Positions 3,961-48,668 of a stretch of 64,000 nucleotides of DNA are shown here, piece after piece. A program made the position numbers and the translations under genes. The DNA is taken from contig CAJARJ010000012.1 of assembly GCA_903944345.1 (NCBI GenBank), positions 4,266 through 68,265 on the forward strand, given 5' to 3'. Positions within the stretch are counted from its first letter, which is position 1, and the number at the start of each line of letters is the position of its first letter. This stretch comes from Candidatus Omnitrophota bacterium. GTDB lineage: Bacteria > Omnitrophota > Gorgyraeia > Zapsychrales > Fredricksoniimonadaceae. Below the pieces are notes generated by a model that did not search any database, was not told where the DNA came from, and was given only the letters and a program-made list of their open reading frames with translations.

Positions 3961-3976
3961 ACTTTTGTCTTCTTTC

Positions 3977-5356: not shown

Positions 5357-5364
5357 ATGCCCTC

Positions 5365-21217: not shown

Positions 21218-23100
21218 TATTTATCTCCTTTCTGCAGGGATAGAAAAACCGCTGTCATAGGTGCCAAGGCAATCTGACCAGAGATGGCCGCAAGAGGTTC
21301 TTGCTGGCCTCCGGCATAGCGCACGCTGTCCGTAGTAAAAAGCAGCCGGTAATCCGCTGATAAAAATGGCAATGTCAGCGTAACCGGACGAGAAGAAAAT
21401 GAATAAATCGCCGCAAAACGCTGCCCGCGACCAACGACATACTCTGCTGCCAGCCATGCTTCAGAGTCAGGCTCAAACTGATCTGAAATAATCACTCTGA
21501 CAATACGCCGTTTTGCAGACAGATGTTTCTTCCGGAGCCTCAAAAGATCCTGATAAAGTCGCAAAAGCGCTTTATGTGAGGGCTGAGATGGCAACGTCCA
21601 GTCCAGCCTGGACGAGAGAAATGTTTGCTCGGCTTTGGGATCAGAAACGGACGTCCAGCCAAAATACAAGAAATCTCTTTGCCTGCCCTCTCGAACTGCT
21701 TGAACAAGCTGGGCATCCTCGTGGTCAATAAAGTACTGAAACGGGGCCTGCTCACCATATTCTTCCCCCATGAAAAGCAAAGGAGTATACGGTGAGAGTA
21801 AAAGGAGTGTCGCGGCAAGCTTGCGAGCCTCAAAAGACAAAAGAGAGCCAAAACGATCCCCCAAAGCACGGTTACCCACCTGATCATGGTTCTGTATGGC
21901 AACAACCAGTCTTTCGGTAGGCAAATCTTTAACCACATTCCCATGACAACGATTGCGCACTCCTGAGTAAATACCGTCATAAACAAAACCGTCTGTCAGC
22001 GCTTTAGCCAAGTTCTGAAGTGAGCCGAAATCCCGGTAATAACCTGTCGATTCTTTTGTCAACAAAGTATGGACAGAGTGATGGAAATCATCACTCCACT
22101 GGGCAGCCAGACCATAACCACCTTTATCAACCGGACGAATCAGACGAGAATCATTCAGATCGCTTTCCGCAACAACAAAGGTTTTGCGTCCATAACGTTC
22201 GCCTTCGCTTTCAACCGCGGCATTAATCTCTTCAAGAATATGACGAGCCCCGAAATCGTAGATTGCATGTACCGCATCCAGTCGCAGAGCATCAATATGG
22301 AATTCACGCACCCAGTATCTGGCATTCTCGACAAAGAATTTGCGTACCGGACCACTGCTCCAGCCGTCGAAATTGACAGCTTCGCCCCAGGGAACATGAT
22401 AACGGGAAGTAAAATATGGCCCAAACTCACGTAAATAATTTCCTTCCGGACCAAGATGGTTATAAACCACATCCAGGCAAACCGCGATTCCCTCGCGATG
22501 ACTGGCATCAACCAGCGCTTTGAGTCCCTCACTTCCGCCGTAACAAGGCTGTACAGCGAAAAGACCCGTTCCATCATAGCCCCAATTACGTTCGCCGGGG
22601 AATCTGGCCACAGGCATAATTTCCAGCACATTGACACCGAGGCTTTTGAGATATGGGAGTTTTGTGCTAACGGCAGCAAAAGTCCCCTCGGGAGTGAATG
22701 TCCCGACATGCACTTCGTAAAAGACTGCGCGGGAAAGCTGAATTCCTTTCCAATCGTGATCAGTCCATGTAAAAGAATACGGGTCAACTATTTCAGCCGG
22801 ACCGTGCGGACTAAGCGCCAGAGAACGGGCGGCGGGATCAGGGCGTTCTCTGGTTTTATCTAAAAGATAGTAATATTGCATCCCGGCTGTAGCCCTGTTG
22901 GTCTCTATCCAGAAATAACCCTCATCATCTTTGAGCATTGGCAATAAGACGTCTCCCTGGCGAGTCCGAAGTTTAAGATCCACCTCCCTGCATAAAGGAG
23001 CCCAAACTCTGAAAGAATATGTACCCTGCCCTTTATAATTGGCACCCAGATCAAAAGGTAATTCTTTAGTCAAGTGTTGTTTCATAGACGCATCCCTCAA
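21217..23100 (-). CDS. treZ: Malto-oligosyltrehalose trehalohydrolase (TreZ, GH13)
   Basis: 627 aa with GH13 catalytic regions (DVVYNH, GFRLDAVHAI, EESDLND, FIQNHD). Confidence 0.88.
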   Translation of the reverse strand: MRDASMKQHLTKELPFDLGANYKGQGTYSFRVWAPLCREVDLKLRTRQGDVLLPMLKDDEGYFWIETNRATAGMQYYYLLDKTRERPDPAARSLALSPHGPAEIVDPYSFTWTDHDWKGIQLSRAVFYEVHVGTFTPEGTFAAVSTKLPYLKSLGVNVLEIMPVARFPGERNWGYDGTGLFAVQPCYGGSEGLKALVDASHREGIAVCLDVVYNHLGPEGNYLREFGPYFTSRYHVPWGEAVNFDGWSSGPVRKFFVENARYWVREFHIDALRLDAVHAIYDFGARHILEEINAAVESEGERYGRKTFVVAESDLNDSRLIRPVDKGGYGLAAQWSDDFHHSVHTLLTKESTGYYRDFGSLQNLAKALTDGFVYDGIYSGVRNRCHGNVVKDLPTERLVVAIQNHDQVGNRALGDRFGSLLSFEARKLAATLLLLSPYTPLLFMGEEYGEQAPFQYFIDHEDAQLVQAVREGRQRDFLYFGWTSVSDPKAEQTFLSSRLDWTLPSQPSHKALLRLYQDLLRLRKKHLSAKRRIVRVIISDQFEPDSEAWLAAEYVVGRGQRFAAIYSFSSRPVTLTLPFLSADYRLLFTTDSVRYAGGQQEPLAAISGQIALAPMTAVFLSLQKGDK

Positions 23101-26100
23101 GAGTCCTCCTGACCGGACAAAAGGCCGGTGAAAATATGCCTGAACACGTCTTTGGCCATAACATAACTGCCTTCGGAAGAGCGCTGCACGGAAACTGTCT
23201 CCCCTGTTAAGACATCTTTAAGCAGAGAAGGATATCTGATCCCTTCAGGAAGAATTATTCTGGTTTCTTGCCATATTTGAGCGGAAGACCGATATCCCGC
23301 TTGAAGCGTAGTTAGTTCCGTAAAGAAACGGGCCGCAGCCGTCAAAACAATTTTACCAGCACGCAGACGAACAAAAGCCACTATGTTTCTTTTTTTCACA
23401 CCCTCACAGGAGGCAGGCAGATACTGCCCCCCGATAAAAAGTTCCTTGTTATCGCGGCGGAAGCGCAAAATCCTGGAAAGAAAGAAAAGTTTAAGTTTGT
23501 CCAGATCAACAATACCGGAAGCTGACATAGTATTGGACAGAAAACTTTCCGGGACATTTTCATTTCCAAGCTTTTCCCATAAATTCTGGCGATAATTAAA
23601 ATCCACCGGACGACGATTATCAGGATCAACCAGAGCGTAATTCCAGAGTTCATCCCCTTGGTAAATATCAACCACGCCTGGGGAGCATATCTTCAAAAGA
23701 ATAGCTGAAAATGAATTCAGCTTCCCGTAGAATGAAATTCTATTATGAAACATTTTAAAACTCTTTATAAAAGGATCTGTCTCAACCGGCTTGAGAAGAG
23801 AATCAGTAAAAGTTCTCACTGCTCCCTCATATCCCAAATCGGGCCTTATCCAGCTGGTATAAACCTTGGCCTCGCGTACCGATTTAAGGACGACCGTCCA
23901 CAATCTCTCGCGAAACGCAGGAAGGTCAGCAGCGGTTAGTCCCTGGTCGGGCCAGACTCCAAGCAAGGTTTGATAAATGGCATACTCCGTATTTCTGCGT
24001 GGCTCCAAAGTTCCCGCCAGGTCTGTTTTGCCGCTTTCGTTCATGAGAGCCCATTCGTTTATCAGGCACTGCCACTCCCCAGGGATTTCGCTCAGGACAT
24101 TAAGGCGCATGCGTACATCTTCACTCCGCTTAGTGTCATGTGTCGAAGACGCCAGGAGGCTGCACGTCCAGCATTTTGCAGCCTGGGAATTGCGAAGATG
24201 AAAATCCTCAACCGAGTACCCGAAATGCAGTGGGTCTCCCCCGACTTCATTCAGAGAGAGTAGACGGTTATAAACAAAAAAAGCAGTATCCTCGACGCCT
24301 TTAGCCATGATAGGGCCAGTCAGCTGCTGGAACCGCATCAGAAAATCCCGGAGCCTGACCTGACTATCGCTGTCTTCAGGGGAATAGGCTCGCAGCAAAA
24401 GAACATCCTGAAGAAAGTCATAAACAGCAGGATTAAGAGCCGGAGTTTTTTTCTTGGCCTTGCGAACTGCCATCTGAATATATTGAACATCTTTCTCTCC
24501 GAGCACCTGGGCTCCGGGCGAAACATAGGTTCTGTAAACGGGAAAACAGGCAATCACTTCACGGATAGCCAAAGTGAGGTCATTTCTGGTAAAGTCCCGG
24601 AAACGACGATTAGCCACAGTGATATGATCCAGCCGGTTGCCCAGGGCATTGATTTCACTGGCCATGTGCACCAGGGCAAAGAATTTCTTTTTGGAATAAA
24701 CCAGCTCCTCAAAATCAATCTTGTGACCGATAAAATCATCGTAAAGACGCGAAAAAGAACCTTCATTGTGCTGATTGACAAAAAGACCGTTGGCGGCGTT
24801 CATAAAATCGTAGCCGACAGTGCCGTGAATACTCCAGTCGCCGGGTAGTTGCTCCCGCCGGTCAAGAATTTTCTCTCCAACAACAAAGAATCCGGAGGCT
24901 ACACCTCCACCATCAAGAAGACGGTCAAGAACCTCACGCGCCGCTGCGACATCAAAAATATTACCTCCCTGCGTAAAGGCAGGATCCTGGTCACACTCTC
25001 CTAGAATCATATTCAGAAAACATTCCCGCTGAATCAACCTGAAATAGGCAGTCGGATCATAAAGACCGTCCGGATGATCAATGCGCAGGCCGGAAATTTT
25101 TCCCCGGCGAATAAGATCGAAAACATAAGCATGATAATGCAGAAAAACATTCTCGTTTTCTGTATGAATAGCCGCCAGATCATTGATATTAAAGAAACGT
25201 CTGTAGTTGATCTCCTGTGCAGCCACACTCCATAACCCCAGTCGGTACGCCTGGGCGTTAAGCAAGGCATCCAGCTGATCAAAACTGTGCTCATCCCCTT
25301 TACGACCGTTAAAGATTACAAGACGCGAGTGCACAAAGTCTCTGATTACCGGAGAAACAATTAAAAGACTGGCCAGCCGCCTTTTGGCAATTTCTTTCTC
25401 GCGATTACGCTCGGAAATTTTTTGAGGATCGGATTCACCGCGGGAAGGAAGATTCCTTAAAGCTGTGCTTATGCTCAGATATTCTTCAAGTTCTCTTTTG
25501 TCGCTCCCGAAAGAACCTATGAGATCCTGCAGCCCATATTCCAGAATCAAAGGATAAGTACGCGGATCGACCGGAAAGCAGCGTTCGTAATAATGGACTG
25601 AAAATCCTCCATCATTTAGAACCAGCCGGATCTCCTGGTTTTCCAGCACCCGTCCATAGAAGTCCCCCAGAACCGGCAAAAGAATTTTTCCGGAAAGTTT
25701 TCGGGTAGGCGGGTCCCAATCAATATCAAAAAAACCGGCATAAAGGGAACTCTGTCCATTCTCCAGAACATCCATCCACCAGCGGTTACTTTCGCCAAAT
25801 ATGCCCATATGATTGGGTACAACATCCAGAATTTGCCCCATTCCATGATCTGTCAAAACCGCACAAAAACGCTCATAATCCTCCGTGGAACCGATTTCGG
25901 GATTTAACCTGTTGGGATCAGTGACATCATAACCATGCAAACTGCCAGGAACCGCCTGAAAAAACGGCGAGCAATAAACAGCCTCAATACCAATCTCTTT
26001 TAAATACGGAATCAAAGCAAGCGCGTCGCTGAAAGTAAAATTCCTATTAAACTGGAGCCGATAAATCGAAGAAGGTATATAAAGAGAGCGAGCTTTCTTG

Positions 26101-26180
26101 ATAATCCAGGAGCTTAATTTCTCCTCACTCAAAACAATCCTGTTTTCTGCGATCACTTTATCGTTTAAATCCGCTACCAA
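23097..26180 (-). CDS. treY: Malto-oligosyltrehalose synthase (TreY)
   Basis: 1027 aa. The N terminus (YRLQFNRNFTFSDALALIPYLKEIGIEAVYCSPFFQA...GYDV) and overall length are GH13 TreY-like, with insertions. Confidence 0.85.
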   Translation of the reverse strand: MVADLNDKVIAENRIVLSEEKLSSWIIKKARSLYIPSSIYRLQFNRNFTFSDALALIPYLKEIGIEAVYCSPFFQAVPGSLHGYDVTDPNRLNPEIGSTEDYERFCAVLTDHGMGQILDVVPNHMGIFGESNRWWMDVLENGQSSLYAGFFDIDWDPPTRKLSGKILLPVLGDFYGRVLENQEIRLVLNDGGFSVHYYERCFPVDPRTYPLILEYGLQDLIGSFGSDKRELEEYLSISTALRNLPSRGESDPQKISERNREKEIAKRRLASLLIVSPVIRDFVHSRLVIFNGRKGDEHSFDQLDALLNAQAYRLGLWSVAAQEINYRRFFNINDLAAIHTENENVFLHYHAYVFDLIRRGKISGLRIDHPDGLYDPTAYFRLIQRECFLNMILGECDQDPAFTQGGNIFDVAAAREVLDRLLDGGGVASGFFVVGEKILDRREQLPGDWSIHGTVGYDFMNAANGLFVNQHNEGSFSRLYDDFIGHKIDFEELVYSKKKFFALVHMASEINALGNRLDHITVANRRFRDFTRNDLTLAIREVIACFPVYRTYVSPGAQVLGEKDVQYIQMAVRKAKKKTPALNPAVYDFLQDVLLLRAYSPEDSDSQVRLRDFLMRFQQLTGPIMAKGVEDTAFFVYNRLLSLNEVGGDPLHFGYSVEDFHLRNSQAAKCWTCSLLASSTHDTKRSEDVRMRLNVLSEIPGEWQCLINEWALMNESGKTDLAGTLEPRRNTEYAIYQTLLGVWPDQGLTAADLPAFRERLWTVVLKSVREAKVYTSWIRPDLGYEGAVRTFTDSLLKPVETDPFIKSFKMFHNRISFYGKLNSFSAILLKICSPGVVDIYQGDELWNYALVDPDNRRPVDFNYRQNLWEKLGNENVPESFLSNTMSASGIVDLDKLKLFFLSRILRFRRDNKELFIGGQYLPASCEGVKKRNIVAFVRLRAGKIVLTAAARFFTELTTLQAGYRSSAQIWQETRIILPEGIRYPSLLKDVLTGETVSVQRSSEGSYVMAKDVFRHIFTGLLSGQEDS

Positions 26181-26304
26181 AACAGCCTCCTTTGTTATCC
26201 CTGCGTCCTGACCAAAAACAATGCCAAAGATTTACCGGGAAAAGAAATTTCCGAATGTCTTTGTGGTCAGAAAAACGCTTATTGACCTGTCTTGAAGCTT
26301 ATAC

Positions 26305-27984
26305 TCACTGCCTCCGGAAACTTTGATTGAATCTGTTACAGGCGTGGCAATAGGCATTATTATTGCCCAGCTGAGTCCGGCCGGTTTCGTCACCGGCCAG
26401 TAACATCGGAACACCCTGAGATAAAATAAGTGTTGCCAGAAGATTGCGTTTTTGTTTTTCCCGTAAAGCTTTAATGGCAGGATCAGCTGTCGGGCCTTCC
26501 ACACCGCAATTCCAGCTTAAATTATCGTTTGTCCCGTCAATATTGTTATCACCATTGGCTTCATTATGTTTATGATTATAACTCACCTGATCATTAAGCG
26601 TGAAACCGTCATGGCATGTCACAAAATTAATGCTGGCTGACGGCCGACGACCGCTTGATTCATACAGATCACTGCTTCCGCTTAAACGGGTGGCAAACTC
26701 GCCCAAAGTACCTCCGTCATTCTTCCAGAAACGCCGGACTGCGTCTCGATACAAGCCATTCCACTCGGTCCAACCGACAGGAAAATTCCCAACCTGATAG
26801 CCGCCATGGCCCAAATCCCATGGTTCAGCAATCAGTTTGACCTGGGAGAGGACAGGATCCTGACAAATAACATCAAAGAAAGCACTTAACTTGTTAACTT
26901 CATACAGCTCGCGCGCCAGGGCACTGGCCAGATCAAAACGAAAACCGTCAACATGCATCTCCAGAACCCAATATCTAAGGCTGTCCATGATAAGTTGAAG
27001 AACACGCGGGTGCTGTAAGTTAAGGGTATTCCCACATCCGGTAAAATCTTCATAATAGCGGCGATTATTTCTGACCAGCCTGTAATAAGCCGCGTTATCC
27101 ACACCCCGGAAGGACAGTGTTGGCCCGAAATGATTACCCTCAGCCGTATGATTGTAAACTACATCCAGAATGACTTCAATCCCCACCAGATGAAATGAGC
27201 GGACCATCCGTTTAAACTCGTCAATGGCCCCCTGCTCAGTCCGGGAAGCCGCATAGCGCAGATCAGGAGCAAAGAAAGAAAGGGTGTTATACCCCCAGTA
27301 ATTACTTAGGCCTTTTGCCAGAAGATGACGATCATCAACAAAATGGTGCACAGGCATAAGCTCCAGCGTAGTTACACCCAGATCTTTTAGATAATGAATA
27401 ACGGCATCAGAAGATAATCCTTCATAGGTTCCCCTGAGATTCGGCGGCACCCGGGGATGTAATTTGGTAAACCCTTTCACATGCAGTTCATAAATCAGGG
27501 TACGGTGCCAGGCAACCCTGGGTGGACGATCATTTCCCCAGTCAAAATGCGGGTCAACAACCGCCGCAAGCGGAACATACGCCGCATTATCCCGCTCATC
27601 GTAAGAAAGGTCCCCCCGCGGATCTCCGATGCGATAAGCAAACAGTTCATCCTGCCATTCGAGCCTGCGGCCAATAGCCCTGGCGTAAGGATCAAGGACA
27701 ATTTTATTAGGATTAAAACGATGCCCAAGTTCCGGTTGATACGGGCCATGCACCCTGTAGCCGTAAAGAAATCCTGGCCAAGCTCCAGGCAGATAACAAT
27801 GCCAGACCTGATCGGTATGCTCCCGCATCTGAATACGGAGAACCTCTTTCGTTTTGTCTGCCGAATCAAAAAGACAAAGCTCAACCTTGGTAGCATTCTC
27901 GGAAAAAAGGGCAAAATTGACCCCTTGCTCATCGCGCGTTGCCCCTAAAGGATATGGACGTCCCGGTCAGATATTTATAGCCAT
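26305..27984 (-). pseudogene. glgX: Glycogen debranching enzyme GlgX/TreX homolog with an in-frame TGA at codon 6 and no C-terminal domain
   Basis: From the ATG at 27984 the translation reads [42 protein letters not shown]..., which then joins the track ORF ([15 protein letters not shown]... from 27828). The protein stops 13 aa after GNNNAYC, so about 100 aa of the isoamylase C-terminal domain are absent. Confidence 0.55.
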
Positions 27985-31938: not shown

Positions 31939-33267
31939 TTAAATTTCCTCCCAGGAAAGCGTAATGTAGTCTCCAGTCGTCGGCATATATGGCGGTGGGG
32001 CACCAAGAAGCCGTGCGTCATAACCGTAATCCTTGGAATAACCCGTTGCTTTTGTTCCGGTACGACTGTCAAAAGTACCAACTGGTCCGCGTTCTTTCTG
32101 AATAATGCCTCCATAAACAGTCAAAGTCCCACGGGGAGATCCAAGCCAGTAATTTTCAAGGAGGAACGAGTCTCCCATAGACATAATACAGGAATTGATT
32201 TCCATATTTGTCGGAGCCGCATCGTCAATAACAACATCTCTTTCGGCAATAATTCCCAAAGTATCATCTGAAGCAGGATCCGTTCTGGGATCGTCTGCAT
32301 ATACCACACTGCTGGGAATAACCACGTCTTTCTGGGCTCCGACCGTAAGACGGCCATTAAGGGTTCCGGATATCGTTAAACTCCCCCCGTTACGGCAATT
32401 ACTCCCGTCGCAGACAACAAAAAGAGCACCATTGGCAGGAATAGGCATGTTCCTGTTTGTCCATCTGTTATAACTATTGGTGACATTCATTGTTCCGTTG
32501 GAGTTAAGCACAATGGTCGTATTCCCCCGCAAGGAAAGCCCTCCGCTGGAAGCAGCAGAACGCAGTCCCAAAGCCTGTGACGGCATCGTAGTGACTTCCG
32601 CGCCAAAAGTAAAGCCTTGCTGGAAATCCGGCTCGTCATTCGGGGCATTGGTAGTCTGTTGAAGATTGACTGCGGAGCCATTATTATAAAACTTGATGTA
32701 CGTATCAACCGACTGCGCCTGACTTTCAAAAACCGGATCCTGATTGATATTGAAATGCCCATTGGTGTGTGTCGGACCGTTAAGACGGTCGCCGGCGGTA
32801 AACCAGACATTCGTTCCTTCAAACAGTTCCTGATCGGTAAACCACAAATAACGGGCATAATTGTCAACCTGCAGATATTTGACGAGCACCCGGGAGGAAC
32901 CAGAATGTGTCCCGGTGGCAGTGACTTTATATCTGCGGATATTCCCGGTTGCTCCCACAAGACCAAGATCAGTGATTGTGGCACTATAAGTCCCGCCTCC
33001 CAGCGCCTGCGTTCCTCCCCATGGATTGGTATAATTTCCAGTTGGAGGTGCGGACTGAGCCCGCAACCAGACAACTGCTCGGGCAAGCCCGGATTCCGCC
33101 AAACTAAACGACTTGGCTCGTTGCGCGGAACTCATGGCCAAAAGATTCTGACTCACACCGGTGGCCAGAAAAGCCGCCCCGTAAACCACCAGAAGACTGG
33201 TGATAATCAGACTAAACGCCAGGGCGATTCCTCTGTTATTCCTAAGCCGGTGCTCAATACATCGCAT
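31939..33267 (-). CDS. pilX: PilX-like type IV pilus minor pilin/assembly protein (PilX_N domain)
   Basis: The N terminus MRCIEHRLRNNRGIALAFSLIITSLLVVYGAAFLATGVSQ matches the PilX N-terminal hydrophobic segment. 442 aa with a Gly/Thr/Asn-rich body. Confidence 0.65.
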   Translation of the reverse strand: MRCIEHRLRNNRGIALAFSLIITSLLVVYGAAFLATGVSQNLLAMSSAQRAKSFSLAESGLARAVVWLRAQSAPPTGNYTNPWGGTQALGGGTYSATITDLGLVGATGNIRRYKVTATGTHSGSSRVLVKYLQVDNYARYLWFTDQELFEGTNVWFTAGDRLNGPTHTNGHFNINQDPVFESQAQSVDTYIKFYNNGSAVNLQQTTNAPNDEPDFQQGFTFGAEVTTMPSQALGLRSAASSGGLSLRGNTTIVLNSNGTMNVTNSYNRWTNRNMPIPANGALFVVCDGSNCRNGGSLTISGTLNGRLTVGAQKDVVIPSSVVYADDPRTDPASDDTLGIIAERDVVIDDAAPTNMEINSCIMSMGDSFLLENYWLGSPRGTLTVYGGIIQKERGPVGTFDSRTGTKATGYSKDYGYDARLLGAPPPYMPTTGDYITLSWEEI

Positions 33268-33269
33268 AA

Positions 33270-33788
33270 CTAGTTCCTCATCCTTACCTTAAGCTGCGAA
33301 GAATCCTGCATGGTTCGGCCCGCATCGGAAATCTTGCTGGCTGTAATATCAATCTGCAAAATGTCGGCCGGGGAATTTGACCGGGTAAATTGCAGGCTCG
33401 AGATGTTTCGAGCCACAACCGAGGTTGTGCCGGCAAAAGTTCTGGTGATCTGACCTGAACCGTCGAGAGCATACACAATATCAGCAGACCACTCGATGTA
33501 ACCTGAAGCATCTAGAATAGTGCCATCATTATTGGTATCCTGAGGAATACGAAAGGTCAACGAATTCGAAGAGGCTCCGCTGCCGAGACTGATCTGGGCC
33601 GGGCGGGTCTTTTTAAGATCCAGTTCCATCCTGGAAAATGATCTGACCAGCTCCTGGCGCAACTGCACAGACACATCACTGGTCAGCCAGTTCTTGGCTC
33701 CGATATCCATAATCTGGAACGATCCAAGCATGAGGATAACCAGAATGGACAAGGAAAGCAGAAGTTCTACCAGCGTCATACCCTTCAT
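33270..33788 (-). CDS. Prepilin-type N-terminal cleavage/methylation domain protein (minor pilin or pseudopilin)
   Basis: MKG|MTLVELLLSLSILVILMLG is the class III signal and methylation motif. 172 aa. Confidence 0.7.
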   Translation of the reverse strand: MKGMTLVELLLSLSILVILMLGSFQIMDIGAKNWLTSDVSVQLRQELVRSFSRMELDLKKTRPAQISLGSGASSNSLTFRIPQDTNNDGTILDASGYIEWSADIVYALDGSGQITRTFAGTTSVVARNISSLQFTRSNSPADILQIDITASKISDAGRTMQDSSQLKVRMRN

Positions 33789-33791
33789 GTG

Positions 33792-34310
33792 TCATCCATT
33801 CGAAATCAGGGTTACAAGTTTTACCGGTGACTCAAGAATTCCGTCTGCATCAGCACGTTCTCCGGTATCCAGCCGGCCATTAAGATTGGTATCCCCGCCA
33901 ATAATTCTGTTCCCCTGCCGCCAGCTGAGAGTAATGGTGACCTTGACCAGCTCGGAATTGCTGTCATCTACAAACACCGCACCCCGGCTTTCAGGAATAT
34001 CGTTGAGAACAAAAGTTACCTGATCGTAGTTATCGACAAGATTGACAAATGAACTGGCCCGAATCTCTTCCATAAAAGAAGCAGCGGCATTGGCGGCTGT
34101 ATTGGTATTTCGGGCAATACTTATCAAGGCGGCACAGGAAATAAAGGCCCCGACAATAGCACAAAGGACGCCAGCCAGAATAGCAGTAGCTACAAGCACC
34201 TCGACAAGAGTGATTCCGCGACATGATGCTCGGCAAGATTTCTGAAAGAAGAAAAGGATGCTCACGGGGCCTCCATCGCACGAAGTCAGGAAAGTCGTAC
34301 GCGTGCACAA
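33792..34310 (-). CDS. Prepilin-type minor pilin or pseudopilin with an unusually long leader
   Basis: RG|ITLVEVLVATAILAGVL is the prepilin motif, preceded by a 32-aa leader if the ATG at 34310 is used. No closer in-frame ATG, GTG or TTG is present. Confidence 0.6.
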   Translation of the reverse strand: MCTRTTFLTSCDGGPVSILFFFQKSCRASCRGITLVEVLVATAILAGVLCAIVGAFISCAALISIARNTNTAANAAASFMEEIRASSFVNLVDNYDQVTFVLNDIPESRGAVFVDDSNSELVKVTITLSWRQGNRIIGGDTNLNGRLDTGERADADGILESPVKLVTLISNG

Positions 34311-34526: not shown

Positions 34527-37349
34527 TTACAGGCCCAAGAACACAAACAATGTTGTATCGGCCGGGCGGATATCAATTATGAAGGGAGCAAGCCCTGCAG
34601 CGAAACGGATTGCCTGGGCTTTCACGGGATCAAACACGATACTATTGCCAACTTCTTGAGTCAGAATCTGCAAACCTGATCTGTCAGGGGCAAGATCAAT
34701 GCCGCCTTTCTGATCCGGAGAAATCTTGGACTCCTCGTGGAGATGCACTCCGGAATCATCCACACTTATCCATGTATAAGTCTGCTCTCCCGGAGTATCG
34801 TGGCGACCCCATTCATTGCAGTTTGACCATGTGCCGGAGTTGACATACTGCCAGGCAGTCTCCCCCTCAAGAAGCATCCCCAGAAAACCCTCCCCCGGCT
34901 TCTGGGGTTCATGAGTATGGCCATAAACAATATAACGCTTCCATTGCTCAACAGGAATGTCCTTAAACAAATCCGGGTAAAGATACGGCAGAAGCTCGTC
35001 CCATAACTCGCCCAACTGTCTGATCCTTTTCTTCTGGGCACTAACCAGAAACAGCTGGAACCCGGAAACATTCTTTATCATAAAGGTCATAAAAGGGAAA
35101 AACATATCATTCTCGACAAACTGATTTAGAGTCCCCCAATGACGGTTTGACAACGCACTCATGAAGTTATCAAGGACACTTCCCCCTGCCTGTTTATTAT
35201 TAAACTTGTCGGGAACATGTCCGTGTTCAAAGTGCAGGATCTGACCTGCGGCAGGACGGACAATAACCACATACCGGCTGATAATCATTCTGTCTTTCCG
35301 GTCTTTATTCACCACTTCAAGAAGTTTATGTCCGATATCATCATTGAGGTCCGCTATCATTTTCTGTACATACAACACAGCCTTCGCCAGGGGCATCGAA
35401 AGGACAGAGTCGTCAAACCAGACATATCCTTCTTTGTCCATAACCGGGCCATAAGGCAGCTTCGCCCGGGTAAGCCTGGCAATATCTTTGGCCTTGGCCG
35501 CCCGGATAATGTTCTGAAGTTGTTGCGTGCGGGCAAAATCGGTAATCTCCAGATTTTGAGCCATCTTGGCCAGATGACGCCTCTTTTTTGCGAGACGTTC
35601 CTTGAGGATAACATCATCGTGATTACCTGCAACATAAAACACCTTGTCACAACGGGCTAAAGCTTCAAAGAAAACCTGATAGGACTGATAGACATCGCCG
35701 TAGCGATTCTTCTGAAGCTCGAGGATATCGCCATTGAGCACAACCACCTGTTTCTCTTCTGCCGCAATGCGCAACAGGTCAAGCAATTCCGGTAAACGCC
35801 CGGCAAAAGCGTCATGCGAATCTCCTGCCCCCAGGTGAATATCAGAAAGATTCAGAACCTCCTGATCGGTTCTGTAAATAAAGGTTCTTTGCTTTTTGCT
35901 CCAGCGCTTTACCTCCTCAAGCAAGGCCTCCGCCCGCTTGGCAAGCCTGGGATGCCGCTTCATTCGTTTGCCGAAAAAAGCATCCACTTTCCCGTTATGA
36001 ATGGAGAACAATATGGACTCCTTCTTATACTTCTCCTGCCAGAACCAGCCACCCGCAATCGCCTGCTGAATAAAACGTACGACTTGCTTCTTCTTGTCAC
36101 CGGTAACCCCCAGCCACTGGTCTTGCGATCCGTTATGAAAAAGCATCAAAGGGTTCTTTTCGGCAACCTTGCGCCAGGCTCTGGCTGGCGAAGAAGATAG
36201 TGCCTCGTCTGGCTCTGCCGACTGCGAAAAATCAGCCCTGTCGTCCGGAACAATTTGCATGGCCGTGCGAATGATCATGGTTCGCCCGGAAAACCCGGGA
36301 AGGGATACATCCTCGGAAAAAGGGCGAATATCCATAGCGGCGTCCACTCCCAGATCAAATCCTCCGGAAAAATATTTTCTCGGCAGTGGCTGACCGCCAG
36401 AAGAATCCGGATCTTCTGCAATATGCGTATAGGCACCCGTATTAAATCCCTGAGCATACCGCTTCCATATGTCATGCGGTTCTTGCGGATTGGCAATACT
36501 TACTCCGGCAGTTTTGGCGCGATCTGCATACTCCTGTGACAACACAGACTGCTTCATTTTGATCTTGTACCAGGCGGCAAGAATCAGGGAATGATACACC
36601 TGACGTAATTGGGCAAAATAGCTGCCTTCATTAACCTCTTTTTCTATAACCGGGATAACGACCTCGCGTAAAACAGAAACAGCCATAGAGGAAATTTCAG
36701 AAGTGGTATCAACGCTCGCAGCGTTATAATCCCTGTCAAGGATCACTTCAAGCCGGGCTTCGGCCACATACGCCGCTCCGGCATTTTCATAGACCACAGC
36801 TTTGCGGGGAACAATCCAGACCTTATTGATCAGCTCTAATGGAATATCGGTGGTGCCGTACTTTTGCTGTGCCAAAGCATATATCTTTTGCCAGAACTTC
36901 TCACCAGTCTTGTCTTGCGGGAACAACAAGGCCGTCGTTAACTGTTTAAGCAGATAATCCTGGGCCAGAAGATCGCGTCCCATCTCCGTCAGGCCGAAAG
37001 TTGGAGGAATAACACGATTTTCTTCGTACGGGCTCAGGTTAACCCACAGATCATGCTCGGGAATGGTCAAAGCGGCCAAAAAGTACTTAAGCAAACGGGT
37101 GGAGTCAACCCTGATATCATTAAATGAAATATTGGCATCCCCTTTATCAAGAATGAAATCAAACCTTAAGGGTTCATCCGGATAAATTTTTATGCCTTGA
37201 AGAAGGGGGGGATTAAGTGCCTGGCTTGGGGCCGACACCTGGCCGGGAAAAAGGTCGACTCCTGCCTCAAGAGGAGACAAGTTAACAGACACAAATACCA
37301 ACAAAATGATAAAAGTTAAGAACTTCATCACAAAAACCGGGAATGCCAA
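34527..37349 (-). CDS. Large secreted protein, paralog 1: novel conserved N-terminal domain, calcineurin-like metallophosphoesterase module and conserved C-terminal tail
   Basis: 940 aa with a signal peptide MKFLTFIILLVFVSVNLSPLEA. The N-domain motifs LRFDFILDKGD, WVNLSPYE, TEMGRDLLAQDY, GTTDIP, LAAWYK and RKYFSGGFD are shared with the 851-aa and frameshifted paralogs. The metallophosphoesterase motifs are SDIHLG, NGDILE, GNHD, HFEHGH and GHTHEP. The tail is GGIDL...AGLAPFIIDIRP. Confidence 0.8.
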   Translation of the reverse strand: MAFPVFVMKFLTFIILLVFVSVNLSPLEAGVDLFPGQVSAPSQALNPPLLQGIKIYPDEPLRFDFILDKGDANISFNDIRVDSTRLLKYFLAALTIPEHDLWVNLSPYEENRVIPPTFGLTEMGRDLLAQDYLLKQLTTALLFPQDKTGEKFWQKIYALAQQKYGTTDIPLELINKVWIVPRKAVVYENAGAAYVAEARLEVILDRDYNAASVDTTSEISSMAVSVLREVVIPVIEKEVNEGSYFAQLRQVYHSLILAAWYKIKMKQSVLSQEYADRAKTAGVSIANPQEPHDIWKRYAQGFNTGAYTHIAEDPDSSGGQPLPRKYFSGGFDLGVDAAMDIRPFSEDVSLPGFSGRTMIIRTAMQIVPDDRADFSQSAEPDEALSSSPARAWRKVAEKNPLMLFHNGSQDQWLGVTGDKKKQVVRFIQQAIAGGWFWQEKYKKESILFSIHNGKVDAFFGKRMKRHPRLAKRAEALLEEVKRWSKKQRTFIYRTDQEVLNLSDIHLGAGDSHDAFAGRLPELLDLLRIAAEEKQVVVLNGDILELQKNRYGDVYQSYQVFFEALARCDKVFYVAGNHDDVILKERLAKKRRHLAKMAQNLEITDFARTQQLQNIIRAAKAKDIARLTRAKLPYGPVMDKEGYVWFDDSVLSMPLAKAVLYVQKMIADLNDDIGHKLLEVVNKDRKDRMIISRYVVIVRPAAGQILHFEHGHVPDKFNNKQAGGSVLDNFMSALSNRHWGTLNQFVENDMFFPFMTFMIKNVSGFQLFLVSAQKKRIRQLGELWDELLPYLYPDLFKDIPVEQWKRYIVYGHTHEPQKPGEGFLGMLLEGETAWQYVNSGTWSNCNEWGRHDTPGEQTYTWISVDDSGVHLHEESKISPDQKGGIDLAPDRSGLQILTQEVGNSIVFDPVKAQAIRFAAGLAPFIIDIRPADTTLFVFLGL

Positions 37350-37370: not shown

Positions 37371-39926
37371 CTATTGGAAGATGGAAACAGCCGGATCAAC
37401 TATCCGGTCGATCCCGATAATCCGCGGTGAAAGTCCTGCTCTTACGGCCGGCAGAGTGGCTGAATCGATATTAAAATGAATCGGTCCACCATCATTAGCG
37501 ATATCCAGCTTCATATTGCGAGTGGACATATCAATACCACCCACCGGCTCAACCGCCTGACTCGCATCGGCTATTCTTTTATGCAAAACATCCTGACTCC
37601 AGTGATCCTTACTGTCTTTCACTGACCGATAATCGTTAGCGATGGCCTCAAGAGACTCTGCAATCGTTCTGTCCCACCCACCCCATGTGCCCGCAAACTC
37701 TGGAATCAATCCCCTTGAATATTTCAACGCCAGATCATACGGATTGGAATTTGCGTATTCAACAAGATCCGCATCGACAATCAAAACTTCCGGAGTCCCG
37801 TCCTGGGCGGACTGAAGAATAAAATTCGCAGCTCGGGGGTCATTTATCAGGATTCCTCTGCCTACAAGTGTACGGAACAGACGGATAAGAGCCTTGATAA
37901 TGTCCTCGTTCATTGTACCGGCGGCAATCACCTTATCCAGAGAGTCACCTGACATCCATTCCACAGCCAGAAGTTCTCTGCCATTGGTAGCCTTGATCAC
38001 TGCAACCCATGCCGGACCAACTCCCTCTTGTTCGACTATTCTGAAACCGTCTTTAATCTCCTTAAGAACAGTATCCATCCTGATCGGCGCCCGAATAGCC
38101 ATATGCTGGTTTTTATAGACATCATGGTTACCGCCAGATCCGACATATTCCTGCTGAACCCCTTTCATAATCAAGGTTTTTTCTCTTCCCTCAACCTGAA
38201 CGGGTTTCGACCGGCCCAGATGAATCAGCTGGGAGAACCGCTTGAGAGAAAAATTCATTAAAACACGCTGAAGCTGTCGTTCTAAAGAGGAATCATCTAT
38301 CTCCAGCACAACCTGATGAACACCAGGCCCCAGAGCAGGCAAAACCAGGTCATTAAGAAGAAGATAGTTCATCGGTTGTTGCCAATATTGACGCCAGAGT
38401 TCTTTATTGGTTATCTTCCTGATAATGATCATTTTCTCACCATACTGCCCGGCATACACGTCTTCGTTATCAGAAGACTTCAATAATCTGGTCTTCTCGA
38501 CATTATCTGTCACAAAACCACGTAAAAAACGCCGCCTTGTATTCTCAAGATCTTCATTAAAAGCAGCCACAGATGTCCCGAGCGAATCAAAAAAAGTCGC
38601 CATGCCCGGACTAGTGCGCTGATAAAGAAAGGTTTTAACAACTACCTGGCTTAACCTGAGAATATAATCCGGGGTAGCCTCTCTCCTTGAAATATCCGGT
38701 TTCTGCGCCATATCTGTCGATATATCCGAACGGCTGTCCTGAGGCTCTACCAAAACTCCTACTCTTATCAACCCTTGCGGATTATTAGCAAAAAGATTGC
38801 TGGAAATCTCCTGTAGGGATGCACGTTCCATCGCTTTATCGAAGTCCGGCGCAAACCCGCCCGAGAAATATTTGCGCAATAGCGGGTCACCCGAAAAAGG
38901 ATCCGCCTCTTCTTTGATATAACTAAAAACACCCTGCCTGAAAGCGGCCATGTATTGCTGGTAAATTTCATTAAGTACTTTGGGATCTCTAAGATTAACT
39001 CCATCCGTCTTGCCTTTGTCAACGTACTGATCGTACAAGATACCTTCCTTGACCTTGCGCTTGTACCATGCCGCCAACGCCATGGAGTAATAAATCTTGC
39101 GCAACAAGGCGAAACTTTCACCATCATTGATTTCTTTCTCGATAACAGGAAGAATAATTTCACGCAACCCGGGTTGAACCTGATTTTCTTCGGCCTCGTT
39201 ATGGACACTATTGCCAGATTGCACCTTCTCCGCCAGATAATCGCGCTCCAGCGCGACTTTCATCCTGGCATTCGCCAGCATGGCTATATTTCCATTCTCA
39301 TAAAACGCCGCTTTGTCCGGGCTGATCCAGACTTTATTGAAAACATCAAACGGAATATCAGTAGTTCCAAAGGCTTCCTGCGCACGCCGATAAACGTCAG
39401 TCCAGAATTTCTTCCCCAACGGTGCCTCGGGGTATACAAGAGAAGCCATAATCTGTTTGAGCATATAATCCTGAGCCAACAGGTCACGCCCCATCTCGGT
39501 ACGGGCAAAATTTTCACTAACAATCCGCTTATCTTCATAAGGAGAAAGGTTGACCCACTGCTCCTCTTCCGGAACAGTCATTGCTGCCAGAAAATATTTA
39601 ACCAGTCTCTCGGATTCAGCGGTCAGCGCCTCACCGGAAAGCAGCTCGTCTCCCTGATCCATAAAGAAATTAAAACGAAAAGGATTATTGATGTCCACCT
39701 GAATGCCAACCAGGCAAGCGGGCTTGAACCCGTGGCTGACATCAACCATAGATCCCGGCAACGGCAAGGCTACGCCTTCAATGGCATATACCGGCAAAGA
39801 ATTGATGAATAACACCTGAACAATAATAATATGAAATAGAATGCGAAACATCAGTTTCTCCCAAACATTCAAACTTTCAGAATTATGAAACTTACCACCC
39901 GATAATAAATATAATATATATATCAA
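37371..39926 (-). CDS. Large secreted protein, paralog 2: same N-terminal domain and C-terminal tail, with a putative kinase-like internal module
   Basis: 851 aa with a signal peptide. The N-domain is FRFNFFMDQGD, WVNLSPYEDKR, TEMGRDLLAQDYMLKQ, GTTDIP, LAAWYKRK and RKYFSGGFA. The internal region has a Gly-rich loop VGSGGNHDVY, ILINDPRAANFIL and LIVDADLV, which suggests a kinase-like fold. The tail is GGIDM...AGLSPRIIGIDR. Confidence 0.8.
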   Translation of the reverse strand: MIYILYLLSGGKFHNSESLNVWEKLMFRILFHIIIVQVLFINSLPVYAIEGVALPLPGSMVDVSHGFKPACLVGIQVDINNPFRFNFFMDQGDELLSGEALTAESERLVKYFLAAMTVPEEEQWVNLSPYEDKRIVSENFARTEMGRDLLAQDYMLKQIMASLVYPEAPLGKKFWTDVYRRAQEAFGTTDIPFDVFNKVWISPDKAAFYENGNIAMLANARMKVALERDYLAEKVQSGNSVHNEAEENQVQPGLREIILPVIEKEINDGESFALLRKIYYSMALAAWYKRKVKEGILYDQYVDKGKTDGVNLRDPKVLNEIYQQYMAAFRQGVFSYIKEEADPFSGDPLLRKYFSGGFAPDFDKAMERASLQEISSNLFANNPQGLIRVGVLVEPQDSRSDISTDMAQKPDISRREATPDYILRLSQVVVKTFLYQRTSPGMATFFDSLGTSVAAFNEDLENTRRRFLRGFVTDNVEKTRLLKSSDNEDVYAGQYGEKMIIIRKITNKELWRQYWQQPMNYLLLNDLVLPALGPGVHQVVLEIDDSSLERQLQRVLMNFSLKRFSQLIHLGRSKPVQVEGREKTLIMKGVQQEYVGSGGNHDVYKNQHMAIRAPIRMDTVLKEIKDGFRIVEQEGVGPAWVAVIKATNGRELLAVEWMSGDSLDKVIAAGTMNEDIIKALIRLFRTLVGRGILINDPRAANFILQSAQDGTPEVLIVDADLVEYANSNPYDLALKYSRGLIPEFAGTWGGWDRTIAESLEAIANDYRSVKDSKDHWSQDVLHKRIADASQAVEPVGGIDMSTRNMKLDIANDGGPIHFNIDSATLPAVRAGLSPRIIGIDRIVDPAVSIFQ

Positions 39927-46387: not shown

Positions 46388-48668
46388 TCAATAATTCTGT
46401 GTGTCACTAATTATTTTATACGGATCTATAGAGATAATAACCGGTGAGAATCCGGCAGCGTTCTGCATCTGCTGAAGCTGCTCAGAGGTCAGGTCTACCT
46501 CGATTGCAGTGCTATTATTCCGTGTCTCAAACTGGGCATTGTCGGGGTTCAGGTTAATACCACCGACTGCTTCCTGCCCAGGCAGAGAAGACAAGGGCTT
46601 TTCCATCAAAATTCCCCATTCTTCATTCATCCTCCGGGACAACTCCCAGGATTTCTGCAACAAACTTCCTCTATTGCGGCTCTTGAGCAGCGCAAGAACT
46701 TCTTCCGCATAAAATTGCTGATCCTTATCAAGAACAAGTGGTTTATACCCCAACATTCTATACAAAACAAAATTGGCTAATCCGTGAGGCAAAGTGCTGC
46801 CAATTACAAGAGAATCATAACCAGACTCGACTGCCAGTTCCTCGAGAGACTTAAGAATACTTTTAAATAATGCGCCCGCGTAAGGGAAAGATGGATACAT
46901 CTGTGACGGATACAACATGCGTTCCTCGTTTCGCAAGCGCTCCAGCAACAACTGCACGTTTGTATCATCGTCTTTCACCTTCAGAGCCGATTCAATTTGC
47001 GTTTGTCTCAGGCCCACGCTGGCCTCAGCAAAAGAAAGAAGAACTTTGCGATCCTGCCAGTCAAACTGCGGTAAAGCTTGCATAAACACGCCCTTTAACT
47101 GCTCCAAAACTTTCTCCAAATTACGCTTTCCCCACTCATCTGACCCCATCCAGATTTTCTGCGTCAGGATTACAGGTGACGAGGTGGTCATCTCCAGATG
47201 GGCCCGGCCGATGATTAACGAGTTGCGATCAAAACCACGACCATTCAATAAATTAAATTGGATAAAAACACCCTGATTATTCCTGTAGACAAGATCGTAA
47301 CTGTCGAAATCATCGGACTGGATTATCTCTCCCAGAAGCGTACGGGTTGTAAGCGTTCGCCCGGGGCCTCTTAAGATATCAACTTGCGGCTCATCATAAT
47401 ACTGCGACAATATCCCCTCCAGACGCTCTTTCTGACGTTCAATCAGCCGGCTAAACTGCTCTCTATCCGCTCTGGAACGTTTAACCTTCAGTTTGGGTAA
47501 AACAGACTCCTGAGCCGGATCTCCTGGCAGAACAGAGGTCTCTTCACGAACAATCACCAGTCTGTCAGCAGCACTCGGCCCCAGGTCAACCGGCCATACG
47601 TCCGATTTTACTGTCAGAGAACTATCCATTGCCCAATCAATACCGCCGGAAAAATATTTTCTGACCAACACTTCGTCAAACAATGCATCAGGTTCTTCCT
47701 TAATAAAATCATACGCGCCCTTGCGGAAGGAAACGACATAATCCTTCCAAATACGGTCCACTTCCCCGGGGTCTGGAATATTTATTCCGGCAACCTTATT
47801 CCGGTCAACGTAAACAGCGGACAATAATGATTGTCTGATCTTTCGTTTATACCAGGCGGCAAGAATCAAAGACTGATAAACCTGTCTGAGCGTCGCAAAG
47901 TTCTTACCTTCATTAACCTCTCGCTCCAGTTCAGGAATGACCATCGTACGTAAAGCTTCCTCCATCATCATATGATCCGGACTTGCGGTTTGGGGCACCG
48001 CACTTTTTTCTTGTGCCAGATAATCACTTTCCAGCTTAACCTCCAAGTGAGATTCGGTTACATAAGCCAGCCCCATCTCGCCATTCTCAAATACTACAGC
48101 TTTTCCAGGAACAATCCAAACCTTGTTCAACGTATCAAGCGGAATATCCGTAGTGCCATATTTTTCCAGGATCCGGGCGTAAATTCTCTTCCAGAATACT
48201 TTTCCAATCTCCCCTTCAGGGTTAAGAGTCTTTGCGGTGATTTGCTTGAGAAAATAATCCTGCACCAGTAAATCTCGCCCCATCACAGTCTGCCCAAAGG
48301 CTGGGGGAACGATGCGATTTCTTTCATATGGACTCAGGTTAACCCAGAGGTCATTTTCAGGAATTGTCAGGCTGGCAAAAAAAATATTTAATCAGACGGG
48401 TTGATTCACTTTTGATCTGGTCATTAGTAATTCTTTCATCGCCTTTATCAAGAATAAAATCAAACCTGAGCGGATTTCGAGGATATACCCTAATTCCTTT
48501 TAATACAGGCGGATTGAACGCCGGACTTAAAGACACCACCTGACCACCGGGAGGAGTCAAAATCGGCTCCCCGGCATACAGAATAACTGGGCTCAAAACA
48601 TGTGCCAGAACTATCCAAATGATGACAAATTTTCTTAGAAACATGAAGGAAAGATACCTGACCAACAC
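46388..48668 (-). pseudogene. Large secreted protein, paralog 3: frameshifted in an A8 homopolymer, with its 3' end overwritten by an element terminal repeat
   Basis: The N-terminal ORF 48357-48668 (signal peptide, then LRFDFILDKGDE...KYFFCQPDNS-stop) and the ORF 46388-48286 (MMGRDLLVQDY...) are joined by a +1 shift inside a run of 8 A (48377-48384). With 7 A the reading is KYFFASLTIPENDLWVNLSPYERNRIVPPAFGQTVMGRDLLVQDY, collinear with paralogs 1 and 2. The last 9 codons (KIISDTQNY-stop) are encoded by the element TIR at 46391-46415. Confidence 0.7.
46391..46415. repeat. Solo terminal inverted repeat of the 133-bp element (inverted left end)
   Basis: AATTCTGTGTGTCACTAATTA matches 21 of 21 of the reverse complement of the element's left end (AATTAATTAGTGACACACAGAATT). 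No internal element sequence follows. Confidence 0.6.

Follow-up and report, generated by a model that had tools for sequence, protein, structure and literature searches.

The described proteins closest in architecture to those considered here are the MARTX toxins of Vibrio and relatives, in which conserved N- and C-terminal regions bracket a central set of unrelated enzymatic effector domains that varies between strains. Export and translocation are the presumed roles of the flanks, and the payload lies between them. MARTX proteins are 3,500 to 5,300 amino acids (aa) long, are exported by type I secretion without a Sec leader, and carry glycine-rich repeat flanks as well as a cysteine protease domain that releases the effectors. 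A comparable arrangement is found in three paralogous proteins, P1, P2, and P3, encoded on a 64,000-nucleotide (nt) stretch of Candidatus Omnitrophota contig CAJARJ010000012.1 (assembly GCA_903944345.1, positions 4,266 to 68,265 of the forward strand), the whole of which we refer to as the window. Here, however, the constant parts are a Sec-type leader, a 305-aa globular alpha/beta domain (the N-domain), and a 55-aa C-terminal tail, and neither RTX repeats nor a cysteine protease domain was detected in P1 to P3 with Pfam or NCBIfam. Every defining MARTX component appears to be absent, and we take the likeness to be architectural only.

The polymorphic toxins (Rhs, CdiA, LXG, and MafB) are likewise multicopy proteins with a constant front and swapped modules, and some of their payload types, such as ADP-ribosyltransferases and Zeta-like kinases, recur in relatives of P1. 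Their payload is C-terminal and accompanied by an immunity gene, whereas in this family it is internal and no such gene follows in the window. No RHS, LXG, TPS, or PT-TG-type domain was found in P1 to P3, which gave no Pfam, NCBIfam, PHROGs, or PADLOC match outside the metallophosphoesterase module of P1. Proteins with a type IX secretion system C-terminal domain (T9SS CTD) in Bacteroidota and cellulosomal dockerin enzymes also combine a Sec leader and diverse catalytic domains with a short C-terminal module, which is common to dozens of paralogs per genome. The present family differs from these in its additional large N-domain and in cargos that are not mainly glycoside hydrolases or proteases, and its tail matched no Por_Secre_tail/T9SS or dockerin model (Pfam and NCBIfam, whole proteins at E≤1; isolated tail, NCBIfam at E≤10).

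Within the same phylum, the giant proteins of Omnitrophota ("Archaeovorins" and multienzyme giants) offer a further comparison. According to two preprints (bioRxiv 10.1101/2023.11.21.568195; 10.64898/2026.06.07.730766), they are 10,000 to 147,000 aa long with many transmembrane helices, combine similar enzyme domains with signal peptides, and adjoin loci resembling type II secretion systems (T2SS) or type IV pili. The mix of radical SAM, HATPase_c, PPDK_N, GGDEF, HEAT, and methyltransferase domains is the same as in our family, but the members of the latter measure only 600 to 1,650 aa and have a single leader. Term searches of these two preprints returned no description of the N-domain/tail pair. 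The family that we describe falls into none of the compared families and is built from two undescribed domains on a modular exported-enzyme theme.

The first-pass annotation of this DNA had proposed that the paralogs carry different catalytic modules on a common scaffold. When the three proteins are aligned and delimited by domain, this is indeed what emerges: each has a Sec-type leader, an N-domain of about 305 aa, an unrelated middle, and a tail of about 55 aa starting with GGID or GGIN. The N-terminal 330 to 390 aa or so are 42 to 50% identical between paralogs (E of 1e-72 to 1e-97 by BLASTP and tblastn), and BLASTP returns a second, short match over the last 50 aa or so, but the middles that are bracketed by these parts do not match one another by BLASTP. 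P2 lies directly upstream of P1, from which it is separated by 22 nt and with which it shares the strand, and P3 about 9 kb further upstream. The probable start of P1 is the ATG of M8 at position 37328, giving 933 aa, because a 100% identical database protein (P0001) begins MKFLTF; P2 likely starts at M26 (position 39851), because its ortholog begins MMFRF. Recent cassette exchange between the three genes was considered and dropped: they are 66 to 69% identical at the nucleotide level, their longest exact match is 19 nt, and no recombination tracts are seen.

The pattern is phylum-wide, and this constant scaffold with swapped enzymatic modules is far larger than the first-pass annotation had seen. 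With P1 as the query, no fewer than 3,673 protein clusters were retrieved at E≤1e-5, and at least 593 N-domain-encoding loci were found in a scan of one genome per species, a collection that lacks the species of the window itself. All of these loci are in Omnitrophota metagenome-assembled genomes (MAGs). Likewise, all named sources of the protein homologs are Candidatus Omnitrophica/Omnitrophota, the remainder being "hypothetical protein" entries from such a MAG. The best 120 homologs cover only the N-terminal 31 to 48% of P1, with the exception of two true orthologs of 100% and 83% identity. Single MAGs supply up to seven of the best 80 loci, and family genes occasionally form tandem arrays. 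P1, P2, and P3 belong to an Omnitrophota-restricted family that is described in no curated library or searched paper; its signature motifs occur in no paper of the literature searched, and term searches of Omnitrophota genomics papers returned no mention of such a family. Many of the MAGs bearing the family (loci L005, L008, and L012 among others) were deposited as "uncultured Planctomycetales bacterium," and mislabeled genomes of this kind could be recognized with the N-domain as a taxonomic marker.

Hidden Markov models (HMMs) of the N-domain and tail, built from the three window paralogs, were run on the 120 homologs. The N-domain HMM was matched end to end in all 120, starting 15 to 60 residues from the N terminus in nearly all full-length homologs, and the tail formed the extreme C terminus in 111; the other nine include fragments on short contigs. 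The N-domain of P1 is about 50 to 58% identical to those of 99 homologs. Neither part gave a Pfam or NCBIfam match (whole proteins, E≤1; isolated parts, NCBIfam at E≤10), save for a chance-level NCBIfam match to the N-domain (E of 0.044; 12 bits against a cutoff of 600). Nor was there any match in PHROGs or PADLOC at E≤0.1, and neither phmmer nor a 101-sequence profile revealed a relative among PDB sequences. For the N-domain, an AlphaFold2 model of moderate quality built from the alignment underlying this profile (mean predicted local distance difference test [pLDDT] score, 75; predicted template modeling score, 0.70) suggests a mixed alpha/beta fold in which two beta-hairpins pack onto long helices; Foldseek found nothing similar among viral models (BFVD) at E≤0.001. 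The N-domain alignment contains 47 invariant positions, many of them polar, in WVNLSPYE, MGRDLLAQDYxLKQ, KVWIxP, EVNEG, and WYK, a degree of invariance compatible with an active site or with an interface under tight constraint. Recognition of the N-domain and tail as two hitherto unannotated domains would turn thousands of "hypothetical proteins" into a recognizable class.

The boundaries of the scaffold are conserved as well. The N-domain ends with an invariant RKYFSGG and the tail opens with an invariant GG (GGIDL). Of 109 proteins, 51 have a motif [DNE]xA[MI] in the 25 residues that follow the first GG (47%, against 4% expected from the middles), and 32 have it in the 15 residues that precede the second GG (29%, against 2% expected). 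The cargo is thereby framed in mirrored order, GG...DxAM - cargo - DxAM...GG, with more than tenfold enrichment on both of its sides. Such mirrored junctions would fit two paired strands that form a neck under the inserted cargo or, alternatively, a pair of processing sites. In P1 itself, a comparison of aa 335 to 352 (about 36294 to 36347) with aa 870 to 885 (about 34695 to 34742) shows the junction motif on the N-terminal side only. The region of P1 that follows the N-domain, aa 341 to 495, has a ratio of nonsynonymous to synonymous substitution rates (dN/dS) of 0.24 relative to the 83% identical ortholog.

The cargo of P1 offers the clearest view of an enzymatic module. Calcineurin-like metallophosphoesterases are characterized by motifs I to V, in the order DxH, GD, GNH(D/E), H, and GHxH. 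The first-pass annotation had noticed a complete set of these between the N-domain and tail of P1, and our analysis confirms all five at the positions given in Table 1 and in the correct order. Pfam Metallophos (PF00149) scored 36.4 to 38.4 bits against a cutoff of 21.5, with only the N-terminal half of the model aligned, and a PHROG metallo-phosphoesterase matched at E of 1e-5. P1 departs from the superfamily in an insertion of about 90 to 120 aa that separates motifs III and IV and in the remoteness of its nearest subfamilies: the module remained below the cutoff of every NCBIfam subfamily model, and the nearest entries were the PdeM, SbcD, and YfcE models and the Rv0805/Icc structures (E of 1e-5 to 0.5). 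All five motifs are identical in the 83% ortholog. Compared with this single ortholog lineage, the two catalytic halves show dN/dS values of 0.058 and 0.070, and the values are higher elsewhere (N-domain, 0.17; tail, 0.19; insertion, 0.30). Loss of the catalytic residues in orthologs, which would have marked the insert as structural rather than enzymatic and spoken against the first-pass annotation, is therefore not seen for P1. Judged by its sequence, the P1 cargo is predicted to be a genuine, divergent but intact binuclear metallophosphoesterase under strong purifying selection.

The middle of P2 is more elusive. The only homolog recovered in a word search of 5.8 billion proteins and in a HMMER scan of 1.84 billion representatives was its own ortholog. 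The motifs that had suggested a protein-kinase-like core were located at aa 595, 694, and 716, and the landmarks comprise a glycine-rich loop (GSGGNHDVY), a beta3 AIR, a catalytic loop (NDPRAAN), and VDAD as the DFG equivalent, so named by their counterparts in kinases. Taken alone, P2 gave only subthreshold matches to Pfam models of the kinase clan, namely, ABC1 (E of 0.0008 to 0.006; 16 to 19 bits against 22.9) and YrbL (E of 0.04 to 0.12), both on one and the same stretch. Weak similarity was found to the middles of family members L014, L038, L064 (two tandem copies), and P0061. A profile of these five modules, built without P2, matched P2 aa 583 to 753 at E of 2.6e-9 in a set of 1,501 sequences, and nothing else in the window scored. 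A joint seven-sequence profile in turn matched solved kinases (ULK1, StkP, PAK1, CDPK1, MNK2, PKR, and RSK) at E values down to 9.6e-7; the best 60 PDB matches were all kinases, including the minimal type III effector kinases NleH2 and OspG (E of 0.002). In the alignment, GSGGNHDVY falls on the glycine-rich loop and E..xG on the hinge, while NDPRAAN and VDAD correspond to HRDLKPQN and DFG of ULK1. In other words, the kinase-like reading of P2 is borne out at the level of sequence profiles.

By homology, then, the P2 cargo is predicted to be a minimal protein-kinase-like domain. Relative to eukaryotic-like kinases, NleH, and OspG, the P2-family profile aligns the glycine-rich loop, beta3, hinge, D-x4-N, and DFG aspartate, and P2 retains the catalytic-loop D-x4-N as well as the metal-binding aspartate; it differs in its beta3 arginine, its domain size of about 200 aa, and its subthreshold score in Pfam when taken alone. 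Canonical kinase activity is doubtful because arginine replaces the beta3 lysine, although the assignment to the fold stands. The full-length AlphaFold2 model is confident for the N-domain and has a pLDDT below 50 for aa 560 to 796. Foldseek returned no PDB match at E≤0.001; among the best 50 subthreshold matches of the low-confidence model, most had kinase or aminoglycoside-phosphotransferase folds. The kinase-like part of P2 has a dN/dS of 0.10 relative to its ortholog.

The P2 ortholog in the 83% identical relative (L001:7529-10047; also L002 and L003) carries an in-frame stop (EAEED*VQPGL) in three independent assemblies and, in one of them, a 23-nt tandem duplication (CTTTGAGAGCCGAATCCGAGAGA). 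It has, in addition, a D-to-A replacement at the putative catalytic-loop aspartate. This decay looks recent, since dN/dS is still about 0.1, so that most of the divergence accumulated under constraint. One relative, L064:2884-7137, contains two tandem P2-type modules (aa 766 to 976 and 986 to 1195), the second of which (L064b) has lost the catalytic-loop D and N as well as the DFG aspartate; the arrangement looks like an active/pseudo pair.

For P3, the expectation of a third, unrelated insert held insofar as its middle matches neither that of P1 nor that of P2; P3 is not, however, an intact open reading frame (ORF) in this assembly. Within the conserved KYF(L/F)A(A/S)LT motif, the reading frame changes by +1 at eight consecutive T (T8; 48377 to 48384, minus strand), which puts the first 100 or so codons out of frame with the remainder. 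Deletion of one T from this run restores a full-length family protein reading ...LIKYFFASLTIPENDLWVNLSPYE. The frameshift could be a sequencing error, the mark of a young pseudogene, or slipped-strand phase variation. The P3 middle was without a match among Pfam models, NCBIfam models, and PDB sequences at E≤1 (in the PDB, one sequence came up at chance level, with an E of 1.5), and no homolog was found among 5.8 billion proteins. Its only relative is found in family member L055, with 32% identity over 146 aa. Assignment as a GNAT acetyltransferase (YAGALFKSIL...ANFVLYRMLGYKP) was tried and rejected, as hhalign against the GNAT modules of the family gave a probability of 0.8%.

Other members of the family extend the range of cargos considerably. 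The middle between N-domain and tail spans 230 to 1,200 aa, and in Pfam scans of ten relatives each domain sat between these two parts. The domains comprised ART-PolyVal, Radical_SAM with B12-binding, His_Phos_1, Zeta_toxin-like, Methyltransf_4, Guanylate_kin, GGDEF, Glycos_transf_1, Lipase_GDSL_2, and GNAT. Precomputed annotations of homologs list further Pfam accessions, which from their numbering we take to be HATPase_c, PPDK_N, EPSP synthase, PRTase, epimerase, CheR, FHA, HEAT, and TPR. Most of these families are ordinary cofactor-dependent enzymes rather than recognized toxin domains. Catalytic signatures are preserved where they were checked: CxxxCxxC is kept in three of three radical SAM modules, and GGEEF, Walker P-loops, and RHG are intact. 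The 83% relative also has a family member of 768 aa (L001:987-3293) that is absent from the window and lies between 2-hydroxyacid dehydrogenase and MscS genes, which indicates a lineage-specific gain or loss. Its cargo is a different, PPP-type metallophosphoesterase (GDFFDRG, GNHE); phosphoesterase cargos were therefore recruited into the scaffold more than once.

The probable location of these enzymes follows from their leader. A rule-based search (K/R followed by a hydrophobic core, with an 11-residue Kyte-Doolittle window above 2.0) recovered a leader in 101 of 107 complete family N termini. In some 40 leaders viewed by eye, the core is followed by SYA↓Q, VYA↓Q, or AQA↓Q (the arrow marks the presumed cleavage site), and P1 has LEA↓G; the AxA/YAQ-type sites of the family fit the -3,-1 rule for signal peptide cleavage. 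No second segment hydrophobic enough to span the membrane was found in P1, P2, or P3. With a Sec-type leader and no other membrane segment, the whole mature protein should be outside the cytoplasm.

How can exported proteins make use of such cargos? We propose that they are exported enzyme carriers, acting in the cell envelope or in another cell, and consider the chances evenly balanced that the following set of proposals holds as a whole. The proteins would cross the inner membrane by Sec, losing their leader. The invariant N-domain and tail might then act together as a handling unit recognized by a conserved partner, which could be a secretion, anchoring, or translocation machine, as these ends have kept about 50% identity among ancient paralogs with exchanged middles. 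Many cargos have intact catalytic motifs and depend on ATP, GTP, S-adenosylmethionine, acetyl-CoA, or an Fe-S cluster, and to our knowledge the periplasm supplies no S-adenosylmethionine, GTP, ATP, or acetyl-CoA. For this reason, the most economical reading would be that much of the family works in a foreign cytoplasm, as effectors delivered by a host- or prey-associated lineage. For hydrolases that work without such cofactors, among them the P1 phosphoesterase, the periplasm or the cell surface could be the site of action just as well.

More tentatively, the N-domain and tail might define an unrecognized, phylum-specific sorting or delivery route that takes hundreds of cytoplasm-type enzymes to or towards other cells. 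Sec export would be followed by hand-over to the conserved partner machine and then by transfer or display, and the cargo may be freed by processing at the duplicated GG...DxAM junctions. If true, this would be the main effector repertoire of a largely host-associated nanobacterial phylum and a short counterpart of its giant multienzyme proteins. Omnitrophota are widespread and uncultivated; many are thought to depend on or prey on other microbes. The family is a concrete candidate for their effector or surface-enzyme repertoire, and if cargo is truly delivered, nature would have provided in this scaffold a modular carrier with tolerance for widely differing enzymes. An earlier genomic study (PMC10066038) suggested that many members of the phylum depend on hosts or live as predators.

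A number of observations weigh against the favored set of proposals. Genes dedicated to secretion show no general linkage to the family (80 loci, 3-kb flanks), and export is predicted from a rule-based call of the leader. The model of the tail is of low confidence (pLDDT, 51 to 62). About two thirds of the homologs are listed without a recognizable cargo domain. Within the P2-type modules, the ATP-positioning beta3 lysine (VAVK) is replaced by arginine in six of seven, P2 included, and is kept in one. The stop and the D-to-A replacement in the P2 ortholog, like the frameshift in P3, suggest that some copies may be decaying or noncatalytic. Finally, the organism of the window is a metabolically capable diderm and not obviously a reduced parasite, which tempers any argument based on lifestyle.

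The main rival, which we hold to be possible but rather unlikely, is that these are envelope-resident enzymes, kept in the periplasm or at the surface, where the N-domain, the tail, or both would tether them to peptidoglycan, the outer membrane, or a surface scaffold. Such anchoring would follow a logic like that of dockerins or T9SS CTDs, and the enzymes would work on polymers of the envelope or gather nutrients for the producer. The leader and the lack of other membrane segments are what this predicts; the P1 metallophosphoesterase and, in relatives, the GDSL lipases and modules of glycosyltransferase type either do without scarce cofactors or suit envelope substrates; an elaborate diderm envelope is apparent from the genes of the window (MdoG/H, a YkuD L,D-transpeptidase, and TolC/AcrB); and with its nitrogenase genes the organism looks free-living. 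It is the remaining cargos that are difficult to accommodate, since from general physiology the intact radical SAM, GGDEF, P-loop kinase, GNAT, and methyltransferase modules would have no source of cofactor outside the cytoplasm, and the tail matches no dockerin, T9SS CTD, or sorting-signal model. A further, improbable alternative is a variable surface, adhesin, or ligand-binding family, in which the middles would mainly be pseudoenzyme binding modules for attachment or metabolite capture. The arginine in most P2-type modules, the loss of D and N in L064b, the large share of homologs without a recognizable domain, the HEAT and TPR cargos, and the near-orphan status of the P2 and P3 middles would all suit such a role. 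The five invariant metal-binding and catalytic motifs of P1, with a dN/dS of 0.06, and the intact signatures of radical SAM, GGDEF, P-loop, and His-phosphatase cargos speak for catalysis instead.

The first-pass annotation had likened the scaffold to polymorphic effector or toxin families. We see little chance that the family is a polymorphic toxin system in the classical sense, used in competition between bacteria and paired with immunity proteins that are encoded elsewhere or go unrecognized. A conserved N-terminal part, hypervariable modules, many paralogs per genome, and occasional tandem arrays are certainly shared with such systems, and so are the ART-PolyVal and Zeta_toxin-like cargos of relatives and the frequent gene decay (the P3 frameshift and the stop and 23-nt duplication in the P2 ortholog). 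The membership itself was not supported, however. The variable module is internal with a conserved tail after it; no trafficking domain of the RHS, LXG, filamentous-hemagglutinin, or other known type was found; most cargos do not belong to toxin families; and the paralogs are old, as judged from their nucleotide divergence without recombination tracts. No small, immunity-like ORF follows P2, P1, or P3: the next gene is P1 after P2, a pilin-like gene after P1, and a gene for a 311-aa membrane protein after P3. This result holds for the window, raw ORFs in the family-wide 3-kb flanks being uninformative in this respect.

Table 1. Coordinates in the window of the three family genes, of their delimited parts, and of the pilin-like genes next to P1
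Feature	Position	Strand	Basis or remark
P1	34527..37349	-	940 aa from TTG; metallophosphoesterase cargo; ORF list
P1 predicted Sec-type signal peptide, MKFLTFIILLVFVSVNLSPLEA↓G	37263..37328	-	Sole hydrophobic segment; n-region, h-region, small residues at -3,-1
P1 conserved N-domain, aa 36-340, ends RKYFSGG	36330..37244	-	HMM; paralog identity
P1 junction and unassigned region, aa 341-495, including GGFDLGVDAAM	35865..36329	-	Without family match
P1 predicted calcineurin-like metallophosphoesterase module, aa 496-880	34710..35864	-	PF00149 and five motifs
P1 motif I, SDIHLG, aa 502-507	35829-35846	-	
P1 motif II, NGDILE, aa 539-544	35718-35735	-	
P1 motif III, GNHD, aa 575-578	35616-35627	-	
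P1 motif IV, HFEHGH, aa 706-711	35217-35234	-	
P1 motif V, GHTHEP, aa 810-815	34905-34922	-	
P1 conserved C-terminal tail, aa 881-940, GGIDL...GLAPFIIDIRP...FLGL	34530..34709	-	Tail HMM
P2	37371..39926	-	851 aa; protein-kinase-like cargo
P2 N-domain	About 38847-39764	-	
P2 protein-kinase-like core, aa 583-753	37668..38180	-	Profile matches
P2 tail	37374-37550	-	
P3	46388..48668	-	N-terminal piece 48357-48668 in other frame; rest 46388-48286
P3 insert	46574-47611	-	
P3 tail	46391-46573	-	
Prepilin-type N-methylation-motif proteins	33792-34310 and 33270-33788	-	Pfam N_methyl
DUF4900 protein, 442 aa, PilX-like hydrophobic N terminus	31939-33267	-	Pfam DUF4900

Immediately downstream of P1, on the same strand and after a gap of 216 nt, lies a cluster resembling minor pilins of type IV pili or T2SS (31939 to 34310), to which a 156-aa ORF after the DUF4900 protein also belongs. 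P2, P1, and the genes of this cluster stand in the same order in the 83% relative. As a family-wide feature, linkage to pilins was dropped, because prepilin-like ORFs adjoin only 3 of 80 other family loci within 3-kb flanks; the association may be local. Signals of an operon between P1 and the pilin-like genes were sought and discarded, promoter and terminator scans being at chance level.

The remainder of the window gives an impression of the organism. Positions 1211 to 6999 hold four consecutive genes of the nitrogenase component-1 type in a nifD/K plus nifE/N-like arrangement, which suggests nitrogen fixation in this Omnitrophota lineage and would be unusual for a phylum often described as metabolically reduced. 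An MdoH-like glycosyltransferase of family 2 and MdoG, which are products of periplasmic glucan genes, are encoded at 16908 to 20383, followed at 21217 to 27828 by three GH13 alpha-amylase-family genes, two of them with CBM48; taken together, the two sets of genes are suggestive of an elaborate envelope and of glycogen metabolism. HtpG, pyruvate kinase, NUDIX, parvulin, YkuD, and MscS proteins and an RND efflux pump (TolC/AcrB) are encoded as well. A 674-aa protein at 61961 to 63985 consists largely of ankyrin repeats; ankyrin-repeat proteins are often tied to host interaction. Almost every long ORF lies on the minus strand and all 2-kb bins have a negative GC skew, which fits a single replichore with co-oriented genes.

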